Positions 2,199-20,667 of a stretch of 20,667 nt of DNA are shown in pieces. The position numbers and the translations under genes are program-made. The stretch spans positions 3,834-24,500 of IMG/VR virus record IMGVR_UViG_3300029428_000026, one strand, 5' to 3'. Origin of the DNA: a virus. Under the pieces are notes generated by a model. It was not told where the DNA came from. It saw only the letters and a list, made by a program, of their open reading frames with translations, and ran no database searches. The stretch's first letter is position 1; every line of letters begins with the position of its first letter.

Positions 2199-2303
2199 AA
2201 AATCTGTATATGTGAGAGGGTCAGATTTGTCAATGGGCCCAGAAAGGAATGAACAAACAGAGTGCTTGATTTGCTAGCTACTTGTCCTCTAGAGTAGACC
2301 TGC

Positions 2304-2819
2304 AGGAAAAAGAAGCAATCACCTACCGCCAACAAGAAAATAGGACGGCCCAGCCTCTATACGGAGGCATTAGCCGACGAGATAGCCTCCCGTTTAGCCA
2401 ACGGGGAAACGATGAAGTCCATTTGCTCGGACGATCACATGCCGGAGGTTTTAACTGTCTGGAGATGGAGGCACGAACGGGAAGAGTTTTGTAAACTCAT
2501 TCAACGCGCGCGGGAAGCGCAGTCAGAAGCCATGCTCGACGAGTGTCAGTCTTTGTCAGATGCCGCTGCCCAGGTTGCCCTCGACCCCGAATGCGGATCC
2601 GCCTCCGTCGCTGCCAAGAAGCTCGCCATTGAAACGCGGCTGAAAGTTGCCGCCCGTTTTGCCCCCGAGAAATTCGGCGACCGAGTCCGGCAGGATGTAG
2701 CGGGCGTTCCCGGCGCTCCATTGGAACGCAAAATCACCCTGGACCCCGAGCAGCTTGCCCAGCTCCGGGAAGACGAGAAAACCGCGCTGGAAACCATTGC
2801 CGGCAAACTCCACCCTTAA
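2304..2819 (+). CDS. terS: Terminase small subunit. Proposed AGG start at 2304; the first canonical start is ATG 2412.
   Basis: The frame is open from 2298. GRPSLYTEALADEIASRLANGETMKSICSDDHMPEV..W, the typical TerS HTH N-terminus, is encoded at 2343-2411, upstream of ATG 2412. There is no in-frame ATG/GTG/TTG in 2298-2411. C-terminal ...RFAPEKFGDR is typical of the family. Confidence 0.85.
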   Translation, partial: RKKKQSPTANKKIGRPSLYTEALADEIASRLANGETMKSICSDDHMPEVLTVWRWRHEREEFCKLIQRAREAQSEAMLDECQSLSDAAAQVALDPECGSASVAAKKLAIETRLKVAARFAPEKFGDRVRQDVAGVPGAPLERKITLDPEQLAQLREDEKTALETIAGKLHP

Positions 2820-2825
2820 TCGAGC

Positions 2826-4199
2826 AGGAACCATCTCCCCGTCAGCTTCTTCCTCCGTCACATTCTCGGACTCGATCCTTATCCCTGGCAAATCGAGGCC
2901 ATCAAGGCATTGCTTCTTGGAAAGGTGAGGCTGGGAGGTCGAAGCGTGGCCATGGTTGCTCCGAACGGATCGGGAAAGACGAGCCTATCCATTGCGCCCG
3001 CAATCCTGTGTTTCCTTACCTATTTTCCTCGGGGTCAGGTGCCAGTCACGTCATCATCATGGATGCAGGTAGAAAAACAGCTCTTTCCCGCGCTTCGCCG
3101 CTATATGGATAACCCTTTCTTTGACGGCTGGACATTCAACAAAACCGAAATCCGCACGCCGGAAGGAGGATTTGCCGTGGGATTCTCAACCGACAACGCG
3201 GGACGCGCAGAAGGGTGGCATCCGAAAATCTCGCCCGACGTGGATCCCGTCTTTTACGTCCTGGACGAAGCCAAGACCATTCCCGACTCCATCTTCACCG
3301 CTGTTTCCCGCTGCACGCTCTTCAACGCGTTCATCACCTCGTCGCCGGGTGCCGATTCCGGAACCTTTTACGACTGCTTCCACAAAAATTCATCCCTCTA
3401 CTACAAAATCCGCGTTAAATACGAGGATTGCCCGCACATCGAAATCAACGATCCAGGCAAGGCCGAACGCCTGAAAAAAGAATACGGCGAACAGTCCTCC
3501 TTCTACCGCTCGGCCATCCTCGGCGAATTCACGGACCTTGACGGGCAATCCGTCATTTCCCGCCGCGCCATCATGGAGCTGCTCAACAACCCGCCTCCCT
3601 TTTTGGACACCGGGGAGACCTGCGGCGGCTTTGACTTCGCCGCCGGGGGTGATGAGAATGTCTTCGCGGCCGGACAGGGCAACCGTTTTTTCATCGCCGA
3701 CCACTGGGCCGACCCAGACACTGTAGGAGCGCGCGGACGTTTCCGCCGAAAGGCCGCCGAACTCGGCATCTCTGCCGACCGCATCTTTGCCGACGGCGAC
3801 GGACTGGGGCTTCCCATCATTGACGACTTCCGGGCTGAGGGTTTCCCCGTGCACTCCTACCGGGGAGGCTTCCCGGCAGATGACACACAAGCCTTTGTCA
3901 ACCTCCGCGCCCAAGCATGGAGGGCACTAGCCCGAGCCATCGAAGAAAAAGAGCTCATTCTCGACATCGACGAGGATACCGTTGAGCAACTGGTCGCCCC
4001 CCGCCTCCAGACGGACGCGATTGGGCGCGTCAAAATCGAGAGCAAGGAGGACATGGCAAAGCGGGGCGTCCGCTCTCCAGACCGTGCTGACGCGCTCGTC
4101 ATGGCCTGGCACGCGCGCCGGCACAGCGGACTTGTCCGGGAGCTTGGGACTTGGTATGCCAGACATCCGGCACAAAAACGCGCCATTGGCAGATATTAG
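2826..4199 (+). CDS. terL: Terminase large subunit. Proposed AGG start at 2826; the ORF track starts at TTG 2910.
   Basis: Walker A is VAPNGSGKTS. The conserved N-terminal LGLDPYPWQIEAIKAL is encoded at 2865-2909, upstream of TTG 2910. There is no in-frame ATG/GTG/TTG between the TerS stop (2817-2819) and 2910, and none in any frame across roughly 2806-2880. Confidence 0.9.
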   Translation, partial: RNHLPVSFFLRHILGLDPYPWQIEAIKALLLGKVRLGGRSVAMVAPNGSGKTSLSIAPAILCFLTYFPRGQVPVTSSSWMQVEKQLFPALRRYMDNPFFDGWTFNKTEIRTPEGGFAVGFSTDNAGRAEGWHPKISPDVDPVFYVLDEAKTIPDSIFTAVSRCTLFNAFITSSPGADSGTFYDCFHKNSSLYYKIRVKYEDCPHIEINDPGKAERLKKEYGEQSSFYRSAILGEFTDLDGQSVISRRAIMELLNNPPPFLDTGETCGGFDFAAGGDENVFAAGQGNRFFIADHWADPDTVGARGRFRRKAAELGISADRIFADGDGLGLPIIDDFRAEGFPVHSYRGGFPADDTQAFVNLRAQAWRALARAIEEKELILDIDEDTVEQLVAPRLQTDAIGRVKIESKEDMAKRGVRSPDRADALVMAWHARRHSGLVRELGTWYARHPAQKRAIGRY

Positions 4200-4201
4200 G
4201 G

Positions 4202-4242
4202 TTGACAATATATCAACATATCTATATGTGTTGATTTATATT
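4202..4242 (+). promoter_or_regulatory. Promoter-like AT-rich block with an operator-like inverted repeat, immediately upstream of the tRNA
   Basis: One candidate is TTGACA (4202-4207) + 17 nt + TATGTG (4225-4230). An alternative is TCAACA (4213-4218) + 18 nt + TATATT (4237-4242). Inverted repeat ATCAACATAT (4212-4221) / ATGTGTTGAT (4226-4235) matches 9/10. Confidence 0.45.
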
Positions 4243-4246
4243 CAAT

Positions 4247-4320
4247 CGCAGGGTAGTGAAACGGTATCATATGAGGTTCCTGTCCTCATGTCGGAGGTCC
4301 AACTCCTCCCCCTGCAACCA
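4247..4320 (+). tRNA. tRNA with anticodon CCT (decodes AGG), an initiator-type acceptor stem (C1xA72) and an encoded CCA
   Basis: Hand-folded cloverleaf. Acceptor CGCAGGG/CCCTGCA; U8 A9; D stem GTGA/TCAT; D loop AACGGTA. Anticodon stem TGAGG/CCTCA; loop TT-CCT-GT; variable loop TGTC. T stem GGAGG/CCTCC; T loop TCCAACT; discriminator A; CCA. Atypical points are C at position 55 and the 1:72 mismatch. Confidence 0.8.
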
Positions 4321-4343: not shown

Positions 4344-5708
4344 AGGTTTAACGCCGTCCGAAATATCCTCAACGCCCCGAAGCTGGTCGCCCAACAGGAG
4401 ACCAGAATCAAGGAGCTGGAAACAGACCTCGCCCGGCAAGCCTTGACGGACCGGAGCCGCACTCCTGGCCGCCCTCAATGGTTTGAATACTGGGACCCTC
4501 TTCAGGGCGCCGGCTTGCAAACACTTATCGATGCACGCAACGAAGCCAGACGCGGCGCCTTTGCGCGGCAAATGCTCATCTGGGACGAGGTTATCTACTC
4601 GGACGGACTTCTGGGCATGCTCTACTCCCGGTTGATTGAAAGCGTTTCCATGCAGGGCTGGAAGATTGACGCCGCGGACGACAGCCCGGAAGCCCAGCAG
4701 CAGAAAAACGCCCTGGAAGAATTCTACAACTCCGTCAACGGACTTCAGCAGTCCTTCGGGCATCTGGCCTCCGCTCTGTTCTACGGCTACGCCCACCTCC
4801 AATATATTGAGGACGCCTGGGGCCGGAGGTTTGAATTCATTCCCCAGCGTTACTGGGTGCGGCCCGGGGAACTTAATGAGTGGCAATTTAACCCCCACTG
4901 TTATATCGGCGTCGATACCGGGGAAAGTGTGGAAGACGAAACTCTCGTCGTGATGGAGCACCGTTACCCCATCCTGTTCCCTGCTTCCCGCGCATCCTTT
5001 GAGCGCAACCACGCCAAGATGATCTGGGACAACCACATGGACCGTTACGGCTCCGCCCCGGCTATTATCACAGCCCCCAAGGAGGCAAGCGCCGCTGTTA
5101 TGGACGCACTTGAGCGCGCCTGCGAAGAGCTCAAGTCTGGCGCATCCGTCGTCCTGCCTCCCGGCTGTACAGCAGAACCTCTCAAGGCATCCTCCATCAA
5201 CGAAAACTACTTCCTATCCCGCATCAACATGGCCGACAAGGATCAGGTGCGGTTTGTGATGGCAGGAACCTTGACTGTTCTGAATGAATCGGGCTCCGGC
5301 ACGCTGGCCGGGTCTGCCCATACGGACAGCTGGAACTCGGTGGTCTCCGCCGTGTGCTCCAAGGTAGCGGAAGCTTTTAACGCCTCCATCAGCCCGCTGG
5401 TGCTGAGAGACGGCGAACCGCTGGCCCGCCTCCAAATCACCTTTGACACCGTTCAGACGCCGCTGCAGAAGGCCGAGGAAATTGCCACTCTTGCGGATGG
5501 AGGCGTCCGTCCCGAGAAAACCGAAATCGAAGAAAAGATCGGCATGTCCATCGAAGACGCGAAGGCAGCCGATCCCGCAGCGGCTGCCGTCAACCGGGAA
5601 CCGGAAGGCACATACATCCCCGCCGACGCTTACGAGCAGCTGCAGCAGCTCATTTATACCGGGCTCATGAAAGGATTTAGCGATGATCAGTACCAAACAA
5701 ATCAATGA
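4344..5708 (+). CDS. Portal protein, Mu gp29/DUF935-like. Proposed AGG start at 4344; the canonical alternative is TTG 4443.
   Basis: Resembles the Mu gp29 N-terminal region (..LQTLIDARNEARRGAF..DEVIYSDGLLG..). The frame is open upstream and encodes the plausible coiled coil MFNAVRNILNAPKLVAQQETRIKELETDLARQA. Confidence 0.85.
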   Translation, partial: RFNAVRNILNAPKLVAQQETRIKELETDLARQALTDRSRTPGRPQWFEYWDPLQGAGLQTLIDARNEARRGAFARQMLIWDEVIYSDGLLGMLYSRLIESVSMQGWKIDAADDSPEAQQQKNALEEFYNSVNGLQQSFGHLASALFYGYAHLQYIEDAWGRRFEFIPQRYWVRPGELNEWQFNPHCYIGVDTGESVEDETLVVMEHRYPILFPASRASFERNHAKMIWDNHMDRYGSAPAIITAPKEASAAVMDALERACEELKSGASVVLPPGCTAEPLKASSINENYFLSRINMADKDQVRFVMAGTLTVLNESGSGTLAGSAHTDSWNSVVSAVCSKVAEAFNASISPLVLRDGEPLARLQITFDTVQTPLQKAEEIATLADGGVRPEKTEIEEKIGMSIEDAKAADPAAAAVNREPEGTYIPADAYEQLQQLIYTGLMKGFSDDQYQTNQ

Positions 5709-6804
5709 CCTGTCCAATCCCGCCAACGGCTGGTTCCACGTCGAGAAAAGCGGAGATCATGAGGTCGACTACGGCGAGGGGCCTGCGGTGCTCCGCATAG
5801 ACGAGCAGGCGATCAAGTCCATGGTGGATGAATTCAACTCCCGCACCTTTGACGGGCCCGGCATGCTCATTGACGGCGACCACTTGAGCCATGACCTTTC
5901 ACGCGACACTCGCGCTCTCGGATGGCTCAAGCGGCTGGACACCTACCGCGATCCTTCCGGCGCGTTGGAGTTGTACGGCTTCATCGAATGGACGCCACGC
6001 GGGCAGCAAATGCTGGCCGACAAAGAATATACGCAATCCTCCACTGAATACGGAGAGGGCATGACGTTCGAGGGCGGCATTTACCGTCCCGCCAAGCTGA
6101 CAGGCTTCGCCCTGACCAACCGTCCCCGAATTAAGGGGAAGCGCCCTCTGGTCAACCGACAGACTTCCCCCGCCTCCACGGAGACCGGGGGCGAACAACA
6201 AAGCCCCGAACAGGGGGAAAACAACCCAGAAACCAATATGGAAAACGACGATAGAGAATATCCGTCCAAGGAAATGGACAAGGCCCAGCGGGCCCTGTTT
6301 GATTCCCTGCTTGACAAGCTGGATGTCGAATTTGACGGCACCGACGACATGAGCAGGGACATCCTCGGACGCCTCGATGAACTGCTCTCGCTGGAAAAGC
6401 GGGAGAAAGACCACGTGAACGCCGAAGTGGACGACGCCGTCAGCACGTATGAAAACGAGCTGGACGAGGAAGAGCGCAAGGAATTCACGGAAGAACGCCG
6501 GGAAGAGCTGAAAAACTCTCTCCGGGAAAGTCCGGCCGCACTGGGCGCCTTTGTCAAGGCTCTCAATCGGTCCGCGAAGTCAAAGCCGCCGCATGACGTT
6601 GTTGACGAAAGCCGCCGAAATCCAGCTGGAAGAACGTCCTTGAACCGCCGCGCTACCCAGGCGCCGCCCAATCCGTTCCGCAAGAAGGAATCCATCGACG
6701 GATTCCAGAACCGCGTCGACGAATTAATGAAGGGCGGCATGAAGCGGTACGACGCCTTCCAGAAAGCCACCGAAGAAGGCTACATTGTAACCTCCGAACG
6801 ATAA
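5683..6804 (+). CDS. Head maturation protease fused to a scaffold region (Mu gpI/gpZ-like)
   Basis: The N-terminal ~160 aa resemble Mu-like prophage protein I (..GWFHV..DHE..ID..A..SMV..FN). The C-terminal half is acidic coiled coil. ATG with AAGGA upstream; the gene overlaps the portal 3' end. Confidence 0.8.
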   Translation: MISTKQINDLSNPANGWFHVEKSGDHEVDYGEGPAVLRIDEQAIKSMVDEFNSRTFDGPGMLIDGDHLSHDLSRDTRALGWLKRLDTYRDPSGALELYGFIEWTPRGQQMLADKEYTQSSTEYGEGMTFEGGIYRPAKLTGFALTNRPRIKGKRPLVNRQTSPASTETGGEQQSPEQGENNPETNMENDDREYPSKEMDKAQRALFDSLLDKLDVEFDGTDDMSRDILGRLDELLSLEKREKDHVNAEVDDAVSTYENELDEEERKEFTEERREELKNSLRESPAALGAFVKALNRSAKSKPPHDVVDESRRNPAGRTSLNRRATQAPPNPFRKKESIDGFQNRVDELMKGGMKRYDAFQKATEEGYIVTSER

Positions 6805-6824
6805 CCCCAACCTGATACAAACCA

Positions 6825-7256
6825 ATGCCATCACTCAATGTAACCCAGAAAAGCGCCATCGTCTATTTCAACACCCCGGAGGGTGTTGACCTGTGCGGAC
6901 AGGAAGGAACCGTCGTGGCGCTGACCGCCAACCCGGACATCCCCGAGTTTATCGGGACGCCGTTGTCCGCCATCCCTACGCAGACACAGCTGCTCGGCGT
7001 AGTCCTGCAAGGGCAGCCCAACCAGGGAACCTGCGTCGCCGCCCTCGTCGGCATGTACGCCGGCCTGATCAAGGCGGCTCTTTCCGACACGCCGGGCACG
7101 ATCAACGCCGGAACGCCCCTCACCATCACGGCCAACGGAGCATGGAAGGCCGCCGCCAGCGGTGAAACCGTCTATGCCCGCGTGATTCACGCCCAGTGGG
7201 AACAGGGCATGGTGGAAATCGGCTTCGTCCCCTCCTACCAGGTCGCGGCTGCGTAA
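6825..7256 (+). CDS. Small head protein, decoration/DUF2190-like (tentative)
   Basis: A 143-aa Gly/Ala/Val-rich beta-type sequence placed between scaffold and capsid. ATG start directly after an in-frame stop. Confidence 0.6.
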   Translation: MPSLNVTQKSAIVYFNTPEGVDLCGQEGTVVALTANPDIPEFIGTPLSAIPTQTQLLGVVLQGQPNQGTCVAALVGMYAGLIKAALSDTPGTINAGTPLTITANGAWKAAASGETVYARVIHAQWEQGMVEIGFVPSYQVAAA

Positions 7257-7290
7257 CATCAACCCCAACCAATAGAAAGACCAAAAAACA

Positions 7291-8214
7291 AGGGCTACTC
7301 CATTTTGCTCAGCCGTCCAGTTCACCGATGTCCTGACCGCCTACTCAGCCGGCTCCGGGAACACCGAAGAGAACTCCATTATCAGCCGCATCGCGCCGAT
7401 CGTCCCGGTTTACGACCTCAATTTCCAGTACAAGGTCTGGGACACGGAATCTGCCTTTACGGTCCAGCCGATCCAGGTGGGACCGGGCGAACCTCCCCGC
7501 CAGACCGTCCTGCGCGGCAGGAACGAAACCGACACCCTTCAGGGGTACGGCTTAACCTTGCCGATTCCGGACGCCTTGCTGGGCGTCAACCGCGAAAAGG
7601 CGCAGGCTATCACCCTGGCGGAATACAAGCTCATCGAATCACAGTTTGTGACCTCGTATGAATATGAACGCGCCAAGCTCATCACCAGCCAGTTGCCTGC
7701 CGCAGCCGGTTACGGGGACTGGGCCAACGAACAGAAGAATCCGCTGACGGATCTGGATAATGCCATCCTGTCCATCAATGCGGCGACTGGACACATGCCT
7801 AACACCATCGTCTTTGGCATCAACGCCTGGCAGCTCCTGCGAGCCAACCCCATTGCCAGACAGGTGGTGTCATTCAACAGTGTCGGCCTCTTCAACGAAG
7901 ACCTGCTCCGCAATGCGCTGATTCGGCCTATCAGGGATATTTACATCGCAGCCATGCCCTACCGCGACGCTTCCGGCGACGCCAAGACCATCATGGAGAA
8001 CGAAGTCTATGTCCTGTACAAGGAAGACTCCCCGACGCAGTTCGACGCCTCTGCCATCAAGACGTTTGGTTTGTCCGGCAAGCTCCGCCGCGAAGTCATC
8101 ACGGAATACAAGCCGACGCCCGCTTTGACGCTGGTAACCAACCGCGTCTACTCGCTGACCAAGCTGACCAACCCGTCCGCCATCGTCCGCATCGACGCGA
8201 CGGCCACGGCTTAA
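7291..8214 (+). CDS. Major capsid protein. Proposed AGG start at 7291; the ORF track starts at GTG 7477.
   Basis: A 307-aa product at the capsid position. The frame is open from 7276 and encodes protein-like MATPFCSAVQFTDVLTAYSAGSGNTEENSIISRIAPIVPVYDLNFQYKVWD.. upstream of GTG 7477. There is no in-frame ATG/GTG/TTG in that stretch. Confidence 0.85.
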   Translation, partial: RATPFCSAVQFTDVLTAYSAGSGNTEENSIISRIAPIVPVYDLNFQYKVWDTESAFTVQPIQVGPGEPPRQTVLRGRNETDTLQGYGLTLPIPDALLGVNREKAQAITLAEYKLIESQFVTSYEYERAKLITSQLPAAAGYGDWANEQKNPLTDLDNAILSINAATGHMPNTIVFGINAWQLLRANPIARQVVSFNSVGLFNEDLLRNALIRPIRDIYIAAMPYRDASGDAKTIMENEVYVLYKEDSPTQFDASAIKTFGLSGKLRREVITEYKPTPALTLVTNRVYSLTKLTNPSAIVRIDATATA

Positions 8215-11394: not shown

Positions 11395-11409
11395 ACCCAT
11401 TCAAGCATC

Positions 11410-12057
11410 AGGCCTAATACTTACGACCCTACTTACAGCAATCGCAATGTGACTCCGCAGATTACGGGCGTCCTGGCGATTTTTCTCCCTGACGGCATCA
11501 AGGTGACCGAGGAAGGCGGCGCCTCCTACGTTACCGGACCTTATCAGTTCCCGGAGCCTCCTACTGCGCCTCCCGTCGATCCGACGGCAGGCCCCGCATT
11601 CCCCTGGGTGAGCTTTGGCTTGCTGGGTGCGTTCCAATCCGTAGCTACGCAGGTGGAAGGAGAAGTCACCCGCTTCTATGGCGGTCCTCTTGGTTACCGC
11701 GTCCAGCGCAAGAATACCACCACTGGGAAGCGCATGACTTTCACGACGCCGGACATGTCCCCGGAATACTTCCAGCTCTCTTTTGCGCTGGGCGGGGCCC
11801 CGGCAAACGGAAAGGAAGCCGTTGCTATCGGGCATGGCGGCGACAACAAAATCGAAGGTTACCTGCAGCTGTGGTATCAGAACGATATTGGCGAGATATT
11901 TCTTACCTACATCGGGCATGGCGCCTTGCGTCTCTTGCAGGACCCGGAACACACAACCGCGGTGGCGTCCGCGCAGTTTGAATTTGAGATGGATTACAAG
12001 GGTCAGTACCAGGCCACGCCGTCCAATATTCAGGATGTGACGACGCCCGCTTCCTGA
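11410..12057 (+). CDS. Putative major tail (tube) protein. Proposed AGG start at 11410; the canonical alternative is GTG 11449.
   Basis: A ~215-aa beta-rich protein at the tube position, followed by a strong terminator. In-frame AGG lies 5 codons after the upstream stop, in the context ATTCAAGCATCAGG. Confidence 0.6.
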
Positions 12058-12070
12058 CATACCAACCCAA

Positions 12071-12100
12071 GGGGCGCAAAAGCGCCCCGCAACCCTTTTT
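12071..12100 (+). terminator. Rho-independent terminator after the tube-like gene
   Basis: GGGGCGC (12071-12077), loop AAAA, GCGCCCC (12082-12088), then a T-run TTTTT at 12096-12100. Confidence 0.75.
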
Positions 12101-12110
12101 CTTCCGCTTC

Positions 12111-14231
12111 AGGCAACAGGCAGGCAAATATGATATACGGACCGTCACGGGACTCAACCAGTCACTGGTCGTGCGCGTGGTGGATTTCCAGGGAGATCCC
12201 GTCGATATGGGCGGCGTCACCCTGCGCGGAGCCGTTCGCCTCAAGACGGGTATTGCCGAGTTCGGCTTTTCCCGTGACGACGAGGGCAACGGCGTGATTT
12301 CGTGGGCCTCGGTACCCGCGGGCATGTGGTCCTACGATGTCTTCATGGATGACGGCAACGAGGAAAGCCCGCTTCTCTATGGATGCTTTGTTTCCTCAGG
12401 CCGGGTGACGCCGGACTTGCCGGACGAGCAGCAGGCGGTAGCGGGCGCGGTCGTCGTGCAGCTGCCGGAAGGAAGCGGATGCGTGCAGGTGGTGCTTGAT
12501 AATGCGTCAAGCGCCGCCTGGTACGCGGAGCAGGCCAAGAAGTACGCCGAGAATTTCAATCTTTCGGTGGACCGGGTCACTACCGGCGAGCCTGGCACTC
12601 CTGCCGCAGCGGAAGCCGTGAAAGGCTCGGAAGCGGGCTCTTATCTGTTGTCGTTTACCATCCCCAAAGGAGACGCCGGTCCCGAAGGCCCACCAGGCCC
12701 GCAGGGGGAACCGGGCGAAACCGGCCCCGAAGGCCCTCAGGGTCCCAGGGGCGACGCAGGACCTCAAGGTCCTCAGGGAGCGACCGGAGAACAGGGACCA
12801 AGAGGCGACATTGGAGAAACCGGACCGCAGGGTCCTGCCGGCCCGCAAGGCCCCGAGGGGCCGGAGGGTCCCCAAGGACCCCGTGGCGAGAAAGGAGATA
12901 CCGGGGATGTTAATCCGGACGGGTCTTATAACTGGACGCAGCCGCAGACCTACGACGCCACGATCACCGCAATCGAAGGAGTCCGTGTGCCGCTGCCCGC
13001 CACAGGGCAGAATGCCATTTCCTATGAGGGAATGATAACCATGACGGCTGCCGGCCAATGGAGCCGCACCAACTATTTTCTGGAATCCGTCATTCCGTCA
13101 TGGGTGACCGCCTTGGTGGAAGCCCAGTCGTTGAACACAAGCTACGCAATTGCTACCGCTAACGCCTCCCTGAAGAAGGGAGTATTTAATAACGACTTGT
13201 GCGATATGGTATTAACCATGACGGCGGCCGGGGGTGTTTCTGTTATCGGCAAATCCACGGGATCATGGAAATTTGCCAATTACATGGGCAACAATAGAAA
13301 TAACGAATATGCTGCCGCTTGCGCCTGGCGGATACTTGGCTCCGACAAGGTGTCGGTTCTCTTGGGCAGCACTGCCCAGGGGTACGCTACGACTGCCGAT
13401 CCGCTGGCGTCCTGCTATTCACATCCTGTGCACTGGGTGGATTATGCCTGGGATAATGCAAATTACAGGTATCCGCAAAACAATACAGTCAATGGAGCGA
13501 GAGGGGGCGACAATGTGCCGGCGTATCAGATCACTACCTACCCTATGGGGTATCTGGGGAGCAATAAGTCGGCCTTGATAAGGGGGACGTTTTACGGACC
13601 CCTCAAGGTAGATTCCCATTATGTTTGGGCATTGGCTCCGGCTTTTACCTACGTCTCCGCGGCCATGACGCCACCCAACCCCGATGACCAGGAGATTTAC
13701 AATCGCTGGGCTTTGTTTGTGGACAAGCAATATGTAATGGATATGGCTTCCTCCTTTTGGGGCGCCGGCAACACAGCATGCCTTACAACCAAATTCAAGG
13801 CGCACGAAGTCAGCGGGACTTATCAGGCGGGCCTCCGGATGGGAGGAATGAGGATAGACAATGCACCCTCACTGGGCATAACCAACTCCTGGGTCCTCAT
13901 GAAGGACACGGTAATGGAGGGCGTGACACCTAAACCAGTTCCAGAAGTAACGGCTTCTGCTCAGGAAGTTCCGGCCTCTGGCGGCGAGGTGACATTGACG
14001 GCGTCTTCCACCCTCTCCGAGGCTATCTATGTGCTGAACGATACCATGTGCGGACATGACCCCGCCGCTGTGTGGTGCACGCAATCCTCTGAAGAAATAG
14101 GGTCCGGCGGCGGCCAGGTTGTCCTGACGCTGGCGGCAAACACGACTGGACAACCGCGGCAGGTGTGGGCGTTTGTCGGCCACCATTACGCCGAGGCCGC
14201 CGTTGTAGAAATCAACCAATTAGCGCAATAA
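12111..14231 (+). CDS. Collagen-repeat tail fibre with a BACON/Ig-like C-terminal domain. Proposed AGG start at 12111; the canonical alternative is GTG 12171.
   Basis: Contains 27 uninterrupted G-X-Y triplets. A fibre-type motif, [10 protein letters not shown], precedes them. The C-terminus (13947-14228) fits the BACON-like pattern ..[35 protein letters not shown]. Confidence 0.85.
12669..12911 (+). repeat. Collagen-like G-X-Y triplet repeat (27 triplets) inside the fibre gene
   Basis: [81 protein letters not shown]. Confidence 0.95.
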
Positions 14232-15352: not shown

Positions 15353-15418
15353 TCAACTGTAAAGTTTTTCTTACAAGTTCATACATATTAATAACCAATC
15401 AATTAAAGGAGAATATCC

Positions 15419-15949
15419 AGGAAAATAGCCATTGATATAGGCCATGCCAACAACACCGGAGCCCGTGGAAACAGGCTTGAAGAACACGCCGTAGCAGCGA
15501 CGATTGCGGAACGCCTCGCGCCTATGCTCAGAAAGCTGGGCGCCCAGGTGGACGTAATTGACTTTCCGGCCCAGAGCAACACGGACGACCTGAACGCCAC
15601 CATCAAGGCCGCCAACGAAGGCGGCTACGACTTCGGGATTTCCCTGCATTGTGACTCATCGGATAATGTGCAAGCTCACGGCGCCCATGTGTGCTTCTAT
15701 CCCGGGAGCGTTAAGGGAAGCCGGCTTGCCATGTGCATCGCGGAACCTCTTGCCCGGCTGCTCCCAGGACGGGACTGCACGGTGTTGGCCCGTCCGGGGC
15801 TGGCCGTCCTGAAAAGGACGCGCTGCCCGTGGGTGCTGTGCGAATGCGGCTTTATCACCAATCCTGAAAATGCCGCCCTTATGAAGGACCATCCCGAAGC
15901 CATTGCGGAAGCCATTGCGGAAGGAGTGAAGGCCTATTCCAAGCTGTAG
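15419..15949 (+). CDS. N-acetylmuramoyl-L-alanine amidase (Amidase_3) endolysin. Proposed AGG start at 15419; the ORF track starts at ATG 15524.
   Basis: KIAIDIGHANNTGARGNRLEEH.., which includes the first zinc ligands, is encoded at 15422-15523, upstream of ATG 15524. There is no in-frame ATG/GTG/TTG after the stop at 15404-15406. AAGGAG (15406-15411) sits 7 nt before AGG 15419. Confidence 0.88.
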   Translation, partial: RKIAIDIGHANNTGARGNRLEEHAVAATIAERLAPMLRKLGAQVDVIDFPAQSNTDDLNATIKAANEGGYDFGISLHCDSSDNVQAHGAHVCFYPGSVKGSRLAMCIAEPLARLLPGRDCTVLARPGLAVLKRTRCPWVLCECGFITNPENAALMKDHPEAIAEAIAEGVKAYSKL

Positions 15950-17206: not shown

Positions 17207-17497
17207 ATGACTGACCAATCCACTCAACCTGAAAACGGCATGGAACGGCTTTTCGGAGAATTTGCCGAAGCCTGCCTCAAGAACCCCTCCCTGGACCAGG
17301 CGACGCGAGCCTTGCGGGAAAGCGTCTTTGCCGCTGCCGGACAAGCCGGCGTCAACCCCTCCGAAGCCTTCGGCATCATCTTCCGGGATATGATGATGCT
17401 TGAATACTTCCAAAAACGCGTGGACGACGCCCGCGCCAGCCTCGCGGACGGGAAACTTCCTGCTTTCGCCATCGAAGAAGTCAACACTCAACGATAA
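17207..17497 (+). CDS. Tail assembly chaperone-like protein (assigned by position)
   Basis: A 96-aa helical protein immediately upstream of the tape measure. I found no slippery heptamer. Confidence 0.5.
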   Translation: MTDQSTQPENGMERLFGEFAEACLKNPSLDQATRALRESVFAAAGQAGVNPSEAFGIIFRDMMMLEYFQKRVDDARASLADGKLPAFAIEEVNTQR

Positions 17498-17515
17498 CCC
17501 CTTATCAATTCCACC

Positions 17516-19448: not shown

Positions 19449-20030
19449 ATGGCTAATTATTACGTTGCTTCCAACTCAAACAATGCCGAGGGCCCCTACT
19501 CTTTTGAAGAACTTGAGGCCTTATACAAGGAAGGGGAAATCTTATCAGAAACACTTGTTTTCCCTGAAGGCGGTCAAGAGTGGATGCCATTTGGAAGGGT
19601 TTATCATCTGACCAAAAACACTAATAGAAAAGCAGAAAAAAAAGAAACGGAGCGCAAACCAAAGAAGAGCTTTATTGAAGTTCTCTTAGATGAGTCAGAA
19701 AAAAGAAAAGCAGAAAAAAAAGAAACGGAGCGCAAACCAAAGAAGAGTTTTATTGAATGCTCTCTTAGAGATTCCAGAAAAAATCCTTCTTGGAAAGAAA
19801 TCCAAGAACTGAACGATCAAGAGCCTCTAAAAATCACAATAGAGGGGATATTCCGTGTTGTTGGCGTAATAGCTTTACTTGCTGGGATTGTGCTGTTTTA
19901 CTCTACCGCAGATGATGGGCAACAGGCCTTATGTTTCATTTACCTGATTTCTGGGGCTTTCTCTTGCCTCCTGTGTTTTTGGTTTGCGAAAGTGCTGACG
20001 TTGCTTCAGCAGATTGCCGACAAAAAATAA
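19449..20030 (+). CDS. GYF_2 (DUF4339)-like domain membrane protein with an internal 26-aa tandem duplication; moron candidate
   Basis: N-terminal YYVASNSNNAEGPYSFEELEALYKEGEILSETLVFPEGGQEWMPFGRVYHL. Duplicated RKAEKKETERKPKKSFIE. C-terminal hydrophobic region. About 35% GC. Confidence 0.75.
   Translation: MANYYVASNSNNAEGPYSFEELEALYKEGEILSETLVFPEGGQEWMPFGRVYHLTKNTNRKAEKKETERKPKKSFIEVLLDESEKRKAEKKETERKPKKSFIECSLRDSRKNPSWKEIQELNDQEPLKITIEGIFRVVGVIALLAGIVLFYSTADDGQQALCFIYLISGAFSCLLCFWFAKVLTLLQQIADKK
19626..19781 (+). repeat. 78-bp tandem duplication (2 copies) inside the GYF-domain gene
   Basis: The 54-nt cores at 19626-19679 and 19704-19757 differ at one position (19670 C vs 19748 T). The 3' parts of the units have diverged. 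Confidence 0.9.
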
Positions 20031-20057
20031 ATATCAACCTAACCATATTCAAGCAGC

Positions 20058-20667
20058 AGGAACCATAACATTACCATAGATGACTTGCTGGCTCTCAAGC
20101 CATCAAGCCTTACGCACGATCAACAGAGCTTCTCCACGTCCACCATTACGGCAGTTTACCCCGTCAGGACGCTTGGAGAAACTTTACCGTACAAGCAATT
20201 CGACACCGTCACCATCTCCCAAAACGGGCAAGTCATCCTAGTGGGGCTGGTGTCCAATATTGAAAAAGTATACAGCGGCAGCCAGCGGTCCTGGAGGATT
20301 GTTTTTTCCGACCCCTGGTATTACCTCGCTAATTGCTATGCTTTGGAAAATGGATGGCAGCCGACGTTTGGGCTTTTCCCCCGTAAAGGCGTAGAGGGTA
20401 TTATTCCCAAGGTCAACCTGAGCGGCGCTTTGTCCAGCGTGCTTGACATGGCAAAGCACCACCCAGCCAGCTATGAGCTACGCATCAGAGACGACAAGCA
20501 GCTGATACCGTGGAATGCATCCTGCGATACTCTTCAAAGTCTGCTGCAGTCCATCCGGCGCTGGTCTCCGCGTATGGTCAGTTATTATGACTACACGGGA
20601 GAACGGCCCAAGCTCATCATCACGGACTATGACTCCCTTGAACCTATTTCCCTGCCGCTGCAACCCT
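20058..20667 (+). CDS. Distal tail/baseplate-type structural protein, 3'-truncated by the window edge. Proposed AGG start at 20058; the canonical alternative is TTG 20085.
   Basis: The frame is open from 20043 to the window end, so it is absent from the ORF track for lack of a stop. The sequence is protein-like (..VILVGLVSNIEKVYSGSQRSWRIVFSDPWYYL..). The two minus-strand ORFs listed here are shadows. Confidence 0.7.

Follow-up and report, generated by a model that had tools for sequence, protein, structure and literature searches.

The window analysed here, 20,667 nucleotides (nt) covering positions 3,834 to 24,500 of IMG/VR virus record IMGVR_UViG_3300029428_000026, is the module of late genes of a phage or prophage of Akkermansia from the human gut. 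Eight late genes of this module, those for TerS, TerL, the portal, the major capsid protein, a 'tube' protein, a collagen-like fibre, an amidase and the product of the last gene, have no usable ATG, GTG or TTG, and in each of them an in-frame AGG stands where the protein is expected to begin. Around three of these AGGs (TerL, tube and last gene) an initial annotation had noticed repeated sequences, which it took for one conserved leader motif. We consider it quite likely, from a comparison of related loci, that this motif sits on AGG translation starts that are read by an initiator-like phage tRNA with anticodon CCU, hereafter tRNA(CCU), encoded in the same module. A relative of the window is Akkermansia phage DTMo-2021a (CP084202.1; DNA identity 82%), which is the sole relative in GenBank and carries no annotation; the comparison draws on about 190 related loci from genomes, IMG/VR and metagenomes, the relatives being 75–100% identical, and the counts given are of distinct orthologous sequences. 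The features concerned, with the AGGs entered as proposed starts, are the following.

2304–2306, + strand: proposed AGG start of TerS, invariant in 45 distinct orthologues with at least eight unrelated upstream sequences
2826–2828, + strand: proposed AGG start of TerL, inside the repeated 12-mer at 2823–2834; AGG in 41 of 42 distinct orthologues
4202–4246, + strand: TTGACA box and AT-rich imperfect palindrome, ATCAACATAT-CTAT-ATGTGTTGAT, directly upstream of the tRNA
4247–4320, + strand: tRNA with anticodon CCU (ARAGORN), the only tRNA found, between TerL and portal
4344–4346, + strand: proposed AGG start of the portal gene, 24 nt past the tRNA 3' end; AGG and the C before it (position −1) invariant over 22 leaders
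7291–7293, + strand: proposed AGG start of the major capsid gene, invariant in 34 distinct orthologues; A at −1
11402–11409, + strand: leader box CAAGCATC of the tube gene, directly 5' of its AGG
11410–11412, + strand: proposed AGG start of the 'tube' gene, invariant in 35 distinct orthologues
12111–12113, + strand: proposed AGG start of the gene for the collagen-repeat tail fibre, unchanged in 34 distinct orthologues; first NTG codon 20 codons downstream
15419–15421, + strand: proposed AGG start of the Amidase_3 endolysin gene, with a Shine–Dalgarno sequence, AAGGAG, at 15406–15411
20050–20057, + strand: leader box CAAGCAGC of the last gene, directly 5' of its AGG
20058–20060, + strand: proposed AGG start of the last gene, which in relatives encodes a tail protein of about 720 amino acids

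The AGGs at 2826, 11410 and 20058 are each in frame with a long downstream open frame, as had been noted before, and the premise that they are the start codons of TerL, the tube gene and the last gene is, judged from the orthologues, very probably correct. The grounds are the lack of a canonical start, the conservation of AGG against freely varying leaders, exchanges with ATG, the onset of a coding signature and the register of protein profiles. In-frame AGG is used inside genes at a frequency of 0.52% per codon, and the chance that eight genes without a start would each have one among their first few codons is about 1e-12. Over all eight genes the AGG is constant in 20–51 distinct orthologous sequences per gene, apart from start-codon swaps in the amidase gene and in TerL of locus L041. 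Six genes, those for TerS, TerL, portal, capsid, tube and fibre, keep it in 34–45 distinct orthologues each, save for TerL in L041, against leaders that contain insertions and deletions and unrelated sequences among the same orthologues. At the AGG itself, seven of the eight genes show a per-site diversity no higher than 0.03, and the amidase gene, where ATG is swapped in, one of 0.17, compared with 0.23–0.30 at third codon positions and 0.34–0.52 in the leaders of TerS, TerL and portal. Coding-type substitutions start immediately after the AGG, already upstream of the TTG at 20085 in the last gene and the GTG at 11449 in the tube gene. ATG takes the place of AGG at the same position in orthologues of the amidase gene and of a tape-measure-like gene, and one codon off in the L041 TerL (AAG-ATT-ATG-AGA-CTC, with the ATG one codon downstream of the AGG position); among tube and last-gene orthologues no exchange of AGG and ATG at the same position was seen. 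RNA structure prediction around the eight starts gave nothing significant (Z-scores −0.9 to +2.4), the sites tending to be unstructured.

Where the products belong to known families, registers counted from the AGG agree with those of the families. Positions 1–173 of Amidase_3 (Pfam) align to residues 3–171 of the endolysin, the first ATG of which lies past IAIDIGH; at its start 12 loci have AGG and 13, among them L001, which carries the tRNA, have ATG at the identical position, both behind AAGGAG. An in-frame AGG at 15407–15409, four codons before this start, was rejected as a candidate because it is part of AAGGAG and the ATG swap fixes the start at 15419. For TerS, positions 1–105 of Sf6_terminase (Pfam) align to residues 19–130, and the first ATG, at 2412, is residue 37, past the helix-turn-helix GRPSLYT. 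Positions 31–428 of phrog_113 align to residues 32–418 of the portal protein, the AGG of which lies 16–27 nt beyond the tRNA 3' end in relatives, and positions 14–274 of phrog_1005 align to residues 13–264 of the capsid protein. The first NTG of the capsid gene is a GTG at 7477, codon 67 of the open frame, and a start there removes 62 residues; the first NTG of TerL, a TTG at 2910, lies beyond the conserved DPYPWQ stretch.

The repeats around the AGGs are as the initial annotation described them. The 12-mer AGCAGGAACCAT occurs on the + strand at 2823–2834 (TerL) and 20055–20066 (last gene), with no third copy, and ATTCAAGCATCAGG at 11399–11412 is identical to ATTCAAGCAGCAGG at 20047–20060 in 13 of 14 positions, the common form at 11399 and 20047 being ATTCAAGCA(T/G)CAGG. 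The tube and last genes do have an in-frame TAA five codons before the AGG; in TerL such a TAA precedes the AGG by two codons. That a repeated 12-mer is unremarkable in itself also holds: the window contains 35 direct repeats of at least 12 nt, compared with 14.3 ± 3.8 in first-order Markov simulations. Since such repeats are common by chance, significance must lie in where they fall and how well they are conserved. Nor are the short cores confined to starts, AGCAGG being found 15 times on the + strand and six times on the − strand, and CAAGCA eight and ten times, respectively. ATTCAAGCA has three copies where about 0.16 would be expected, two of them at AGG starts and one antisense at 17405.

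On these two counts, the proposal of one conserved leader motif stands for the box shared by the tube and last genes, which is kept in their orthologues, and falls for the 12-mer shared by TerL and the last gene, which is found in only one of 42 TerL variants. AGC-AGG-AACCAT is that single variant, AGC-AGG-AATCAT accounts for seven of the 42, and the remainder are sequences such as GTC-AGG-ACACGA, ACC-AGG-ACACGC and ATC-AGG-CCATAC; the form AGC...AACCAT is common to TerL and the last gene in the window genome alone. Diversity in the TerL leader (0.34) is higher than at third codon positions (0.23). Because the TerL orthologues vary both in the leader and at codons 2 and 3, the 12-mer is not a maintained element, and beyond C-AGG it is, on the evidence of the alignment, apparently a coincidence between a variable leader and variable codons. 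The motif thus appears from the orthologues to be composite, made up of the AGG start, a preferred C at −1, the coincidental AGC...AACCAT and a gene-specific box, CAAGCAnC.

In the last gene, AGG and the C at −1 are unchanged in 19 distinct orthologous contexts, which include four different upstream genes. Most changes from the AGG to the TTG at 20085 fall on third positions (CAT/CAC, ATT/ATC, ATA/ATC, GAC/GAT), and upstream of the box the alignment collapses with insertions and deletions. The box is found in 17 of the 19 contexts, the exceptions being L171 (CAAACACC) and L169 (GACAACTC), the latter with a different leader and AGG retained, and diversity is 0.12 at −12 to −2, compared with 0.30 at third codon positions and 0.36 at −30 to −13. 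The tube gene, which is so named from its position only, its product having no Pfam or PHROG match, carries CAAGCA at −8 to −3 in 28 of its 35 distinct orthologues (CCAGCA, CAAGTA and TAAGCA also occur), with a leader diversity of 0.13 compared with 0.25 at third codon positions. Coding-type substitutions, and in L124 a 3-nt insertion that keeps the frame, set in right after the AGG, and the GTG at 11449 sits within this conserved pattern. The likeness between the two genes reaches, in most relatives, TAACCATTT(TA)CAAGCA(T/G)C-AGG; their leaders also differ consistently (T/C vs G at −2, TTTC vs TTTTAC), which makes recent copying between the two sites unlikely. A third gene with the box is the tape-measure-like gene, which has ATG in the window and in all other distinct variants (15) and AGG only in L147, where it is preceded by CAAGCACC-AGG. 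The box is kept in tube and last-gene orthologues, whose leaders are about half as diverse as third positions, and recurs in L147, and for these reasons exceeds chance. It is present at two of the eight AGG starts of the window and at none of the other six, and the alignments argue that it is a real but gene-specific leader element that is dispensable for AGG initiation.

A more sceptical explanation would make the whole motif, CAAGCA box included, functionless, the outcome of chance, A/C-rich junctions and the close kinship of the sampled phages. The surplus of 12-nt repeats is in keeping with it, and so is the finding that junctions in the window, those before ATG genes included, generally show TAACC... 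after a stop codon: AACGATAACCCC at 6797–6808 and 17490–17501 marks two stop-codon junctions ahead of ATG-start genes at 6825 and 17516. Among relatives as similar as these, short conserved stretches are moreover to be expected. We nevertheless think this explanation unlikely, as CAAGCA falls at exactly −8 to −3 of three AGG-start genes (about 1e-8 if the sites were independent, a rough estimate), and the reduced diversity of the tube and last-gene leaders and the consistent differences between them speak against it as well.

The converse idea, that every AGG start is defined or driven by a single conserved leader motif (ATTCAAGCA...AGCAGGAACCAT) acting in cis as a common signal, has in its favour the exact 12-mer in phase at two starts, the 13/14 match at two, the retention of CAAGCAnC in the tube and last genes with its reappearance in L147, and the fact that, of 419 occurrences of CAAGCAnC over all loci, 85 are followed by AGG and eight by ATG. 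It seems to us improbable to a greater degree than the preceding explanation, because the box is missing from six AGG-start genes out of eight, positions −12 to −2 and codons 2 and 3 vary freely among TerL orthologues, the L169 last gene has another leader before the same AGG, TerS is apparently almost leaderless and the amidase gene has an ordinary Shine–Dalgarno sequence instead. What is common to all eight starts is AGG alone, plus a weak preference for C at −1; there is no single shared leader, and AGG starts occur behind leaders as different as near-leaderless, Shine–Dalgarno, CAAGCA box and, in the portal and fibre genes, T/C-rich sequence.

Some of these leaders have features of their own. 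Upstream of TerS (window 2266–2306) TTGATT-N18-TAGAGT is followed after 8 nt by AGG, and the arrangement TTGnnn-N16-18-TAnnnT-N6-8-AGG is kept in 28 of 31 distinct TerS upstream variants belonging to at least eight unrelated classes. With a sigma70-like −35/−10 pair 6–8 nt before the AGG, the TerS mRNA would begin at the AGG or 1–2 nt before it, that is, be leaderless or have a leader of 1–2 nt. The RNA-labelled sequencing runs that contain window sequence are wastewater metagenome contigs only, from which transcript ends are unreadable. The capsid leader contains AGAAAGA at 7274–7280, 11–17 nt before the AGG and invariant in 38 distinct orthologues, possibly a purine-rich element for ribosome binding. 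A terminator-like hairpin, GGGGCGC-AAAA-GCGCCCC with a T run of variable length (12071–12103), separates the tube gene from the fibre AGG; its stem is kept in relatives, with loop and stem letters varying in a compensatory manner. The window also has 14 + strand genes with an ATG no more than a few codons into the open frame, and their leaders are A/C-rich and without a Shine–Dalgarno sequence. A role of the AGGA of the motif as such a sequence was rejected, as in TerL and the tube gene no in-frame start lies at the right spacing and these A/C-rich ATG leaders have nothing of the kind.

The tRNA(CCU) is found in the same location in relatives (95 copies, 22 variants). ARAGORN labels it as Arg; the Rfam tRNA model gives 51.2 bits and flags pair 1:72 as non-canonical, and in an Rfam scan of the window nothing but this tRNA reached the threshold. 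All 22 variants have a C1xA72 mismatch, A73 and an encoded CCA. The acceptor stem, CGCAGGG/CCCTGCA, is one pair off the CGCGGGG/CCCCGCA of the E. coli tRNA-Met gene that has four copies per genome and is the initiator gene. Across 18 phage variants and E. coli, the 1:72 pair is never formed, 2:71 is G:C in 17 and G:U in two, and 3:70 is C:G in 19 of 19. The anticodon stem is CGGGG/CCCCG in 18 of the 22 variants, giving G:C at 29:41, 30:40 and 31:39, and two variants have U31:G39. Covariation extends over all four stems, with 11 pairs changed on both sides, a number exceeded in 0 of 500 shuffles. The anticodon is CCT in all 97 copies of the scaffold, in place of the CAU of initiators, and no CAU version of the scaffold was found in IMG/VR. 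Position 37 is G in most copies and A in eight loci. The anticodon CCU contains the ArgRS identity elements C35 and U36; by our own numbering of the 7-nt D loop, position 20 would be U, and not the A20 used by E. coli ArgRS. L147 (ULRR01030325.1) has two copies of tRNA(CCU), at 565 and 3253, and a second TerS-like gene that is also AGG-started (tccagc-AGG-aaa at 2124); two related prophages may be present on this contig, or the assembly may be chimeric.

C1xA72, G2:C71, C3:G70, A73 and, in most relatives, G:C at 29–31/39–41 are features that the phage tRNA shares with bacterial tRNAfMet, from which it differs in having CCU for CAU and U11:A24 for A11:U24. The 1:72 mismatch, together with 2:71 and 3:70, is the formylase determinant, and the three G:C pairs are the P-site signature, of which au/GC/GC is a natural variant that occurs in alpha-proteobacterial and some mycoplasmal initiators (PMC5389676). 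A C1xA72 mismatch prevents EF-Tu from binding and is peculiar to initiator tRNAs of bacteria (PMC5389676), and the Watson–Crick 1:72 pair that an elongator has for binding EF-Tu is absent from every copy of the phage tRNA. As for its own expression, the TTGACA upstream is kept in 37 of 39 distinct variants of the tRNA upstream region, a promoter scan picked out TCAACA-N18-TATATT at 4213–4242, and the segment 4202–4246 is possibly the tRNA's own promoter and operator.

Our working hypothesis is that tRNA(CCU) would enter the ribosomal P site directly and pair there with AGG. By analogy with known initiator tRNAs, the 1:72 mismatch would keep it off EF-Tu and make it a formylase substrate, the G:C pairs of the anticodon stem would license P-site binding, and the CCU anticodon would select AGG; initiator function, the amino acid charged and any regulatory purpose are thus what we infer from the features of the tRNA. 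Translation of eight or more late genes would then require the phage tRNA, with the 14 neighbouring genes keeping ATG. Since the tRNA lies inside the late operon behind the TTGACA box and palindrome, translation of packaging, capsid, tail and lysis genes would depend on its expression. The products of TerL and the last gene had been expected to begin M-N-H, and the AGG is indeed in the same register in both; Met at the first position is unproven, and the first residue of AGG-started proteins is probably not Met, because a CCU anticodon is no MetRS substrate by the established identity rules. We lean, with less assurance than for the AGG starts and their tRNA, towards a wider model in which AGG is a private, switchable start codon, with late genes that depend on tRNA(CCU) and possibly start with Arg, CAAGCAnC acting as an enhancer tuned to this channel, and the arrangement serving as a late-gene lock. 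It is tempting to speculate that such a lock would act on the late genes of the lysogen or, alternatively, that late translation could persist after shutdown of host initiation.

Several points weigh against this hypothesis. The whole case is comparative sequence analysis, built on conservation, ATG/AGG swaps, tRNA features and profile registers. AGG is used 31 times internally as an ordinary codon, so that something besides AGG must mark the starts, and no signal common to them was found. The preference for C at −1, seen at seven of the eight AGG starts, is weakly significant within the window when set against 13 of 31 internal AGGs (P = 0.026) or seven of 14 ATG starts (P = 0.095). The window copy of the tRNA, like that of L002, has A29:U41 and hence two of the three G:C pairs (au/GC/GC), U11:A24 replaces the initiator A11:U24 in all 18 phage variants, and the T loop, TCCAACT, is unusual. 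A fourth base pair, between the base at position 37 in the initiator tRNA and mRNA position −1, has been shown in E. coli (PMC10018350), and the mostly G37 tRNA with C at −1 in seven of eight starts would likewise extend pairing to CAGG. However, there is no covariation, since the eight loci with A37 instead of G37 keep C at −1 unchanged, and the capsid gene has A at −1; a −1/position 37 pairing is accordingly unsupported.

It could still be argued that the AGGs are Arg codons or untranslated leader, with initiation at downstream or near-cognate starts, and that the tRNA is an elongator tRNA-Arg for a rare codon. The ARAGORN label fits this, AGG is a minor codon for Arg (31 internal uses, about 9% of the codons for this amino acid), and a TTG is available at 20085 and a GTG at 11449, with A/C-rich sequence upstream like that of the ATG leaders. 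Yet downstream starts would delete the TerL DPYPWQ stretch, the TerS helix-turn-helix, the N terminus of Amidase_3 and 62 capsid residues, coding-type conservation reaches the AGG and ends there, relatives have ATG at exactly the AGG codon, and the C1xA72 mismatch blocks EF-Tu binding (PMC5389676); together these make the argument very hard to sustain. Two near-cognate candidates fail in relatives, the ATT at 2862 in TerL being GTC in L001 and the ATC at 11407, which precedes the tube AGG, being ACC in several of them. Read-through of the TAA, fusing neighbouring proteins, was rejected, the stretch from TAA to AGG being unconserved and containing insertions and deletions.

As far as we know, every natural translation start on record relies on a single initiator tRNA, that with anticodon CAU, and non-AUG starts are read by the same tRNA through mismatch. 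Varshney and RajBhandary reportedly obtained, in 1990, initiation at an amber codon with an anticodon-mutant initiator tRNA in E. coli. In such engineered E. coli initiators, as in the tRNA(CCU) proposed here, an initiator body with an altered anticodon starts at the complementary codon, and the CCU/AGG combination was the strongest of 12 anticodon–start pairs tested (bioRxiv 10.64898/2026.04.16.719103). Those are laboratory constructs on the metY scaffold, whereas the phage pair is natural, is found in at least 90 independent phage or prophage assemblies, and has its own scaffold (U11:A24, G37, T loop TCCAACT), with eight or more dependent genes. Phage suppressor tRNAs that recode stop codons of late genes are said to have been described in crAss-like and other gut phages by Ivanova in 2014, Borges in 2022 and Peters in 2022. 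There too a phage tRNA alters the decoding of late structural and lysis genes that are unreadable without it, but it acts on stop codons during elongation, whereas that of the Akkermansia phage would act on the start codon at initiation. Near-cognate starts read by the normal initiator include GUG, UUG, AUU in infC and GTC in Streptomyces sigR (PMC5472188). They are likewise cases of non-AUG initiation in bacteria, often regulatory, but involve tRNAfMet(CAU) through a mismatch, unlike the fully complementary, dedicated tRNA considered here. In the literature that we searched there was no natural non-CAU initiator tRNA, phage initiator tRNA, AGG start in phages, Akkermansia phage tRNA or reassignment of a start codon.

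A natural second initiator with another anticodon would, if true, represent a new layer of variation in the genetic code, one that acts on start codons instead of sense or stop codons. It would also be a natural counterpart to engineered orthogonal initiation, in which CCU/AGG independently proved the best pair, and would offer a testable model for the gating of late-gene translation by a prophage. A consequence for annotation is that gene-calling programs are unable to locate where the main structural genes really start in common human-gut Akkermansia prophages. The leader motif itself carries less weight than the AGG starts.

Two further repeats were seen in the window. At its left edge a 17-nt direct repeat, CCCTGGAATCTCGTATA, occurs in tandem-like arrangement at 41–57 and 60–76 and adjoins a minus-strand regulator-like gene. 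The gene at 19449–20030 contains an exact 44-nt direct repeat (19626–19669 and 19704–19747), by which the peptide KAEKKETERKPKKSFIE is duplicated.

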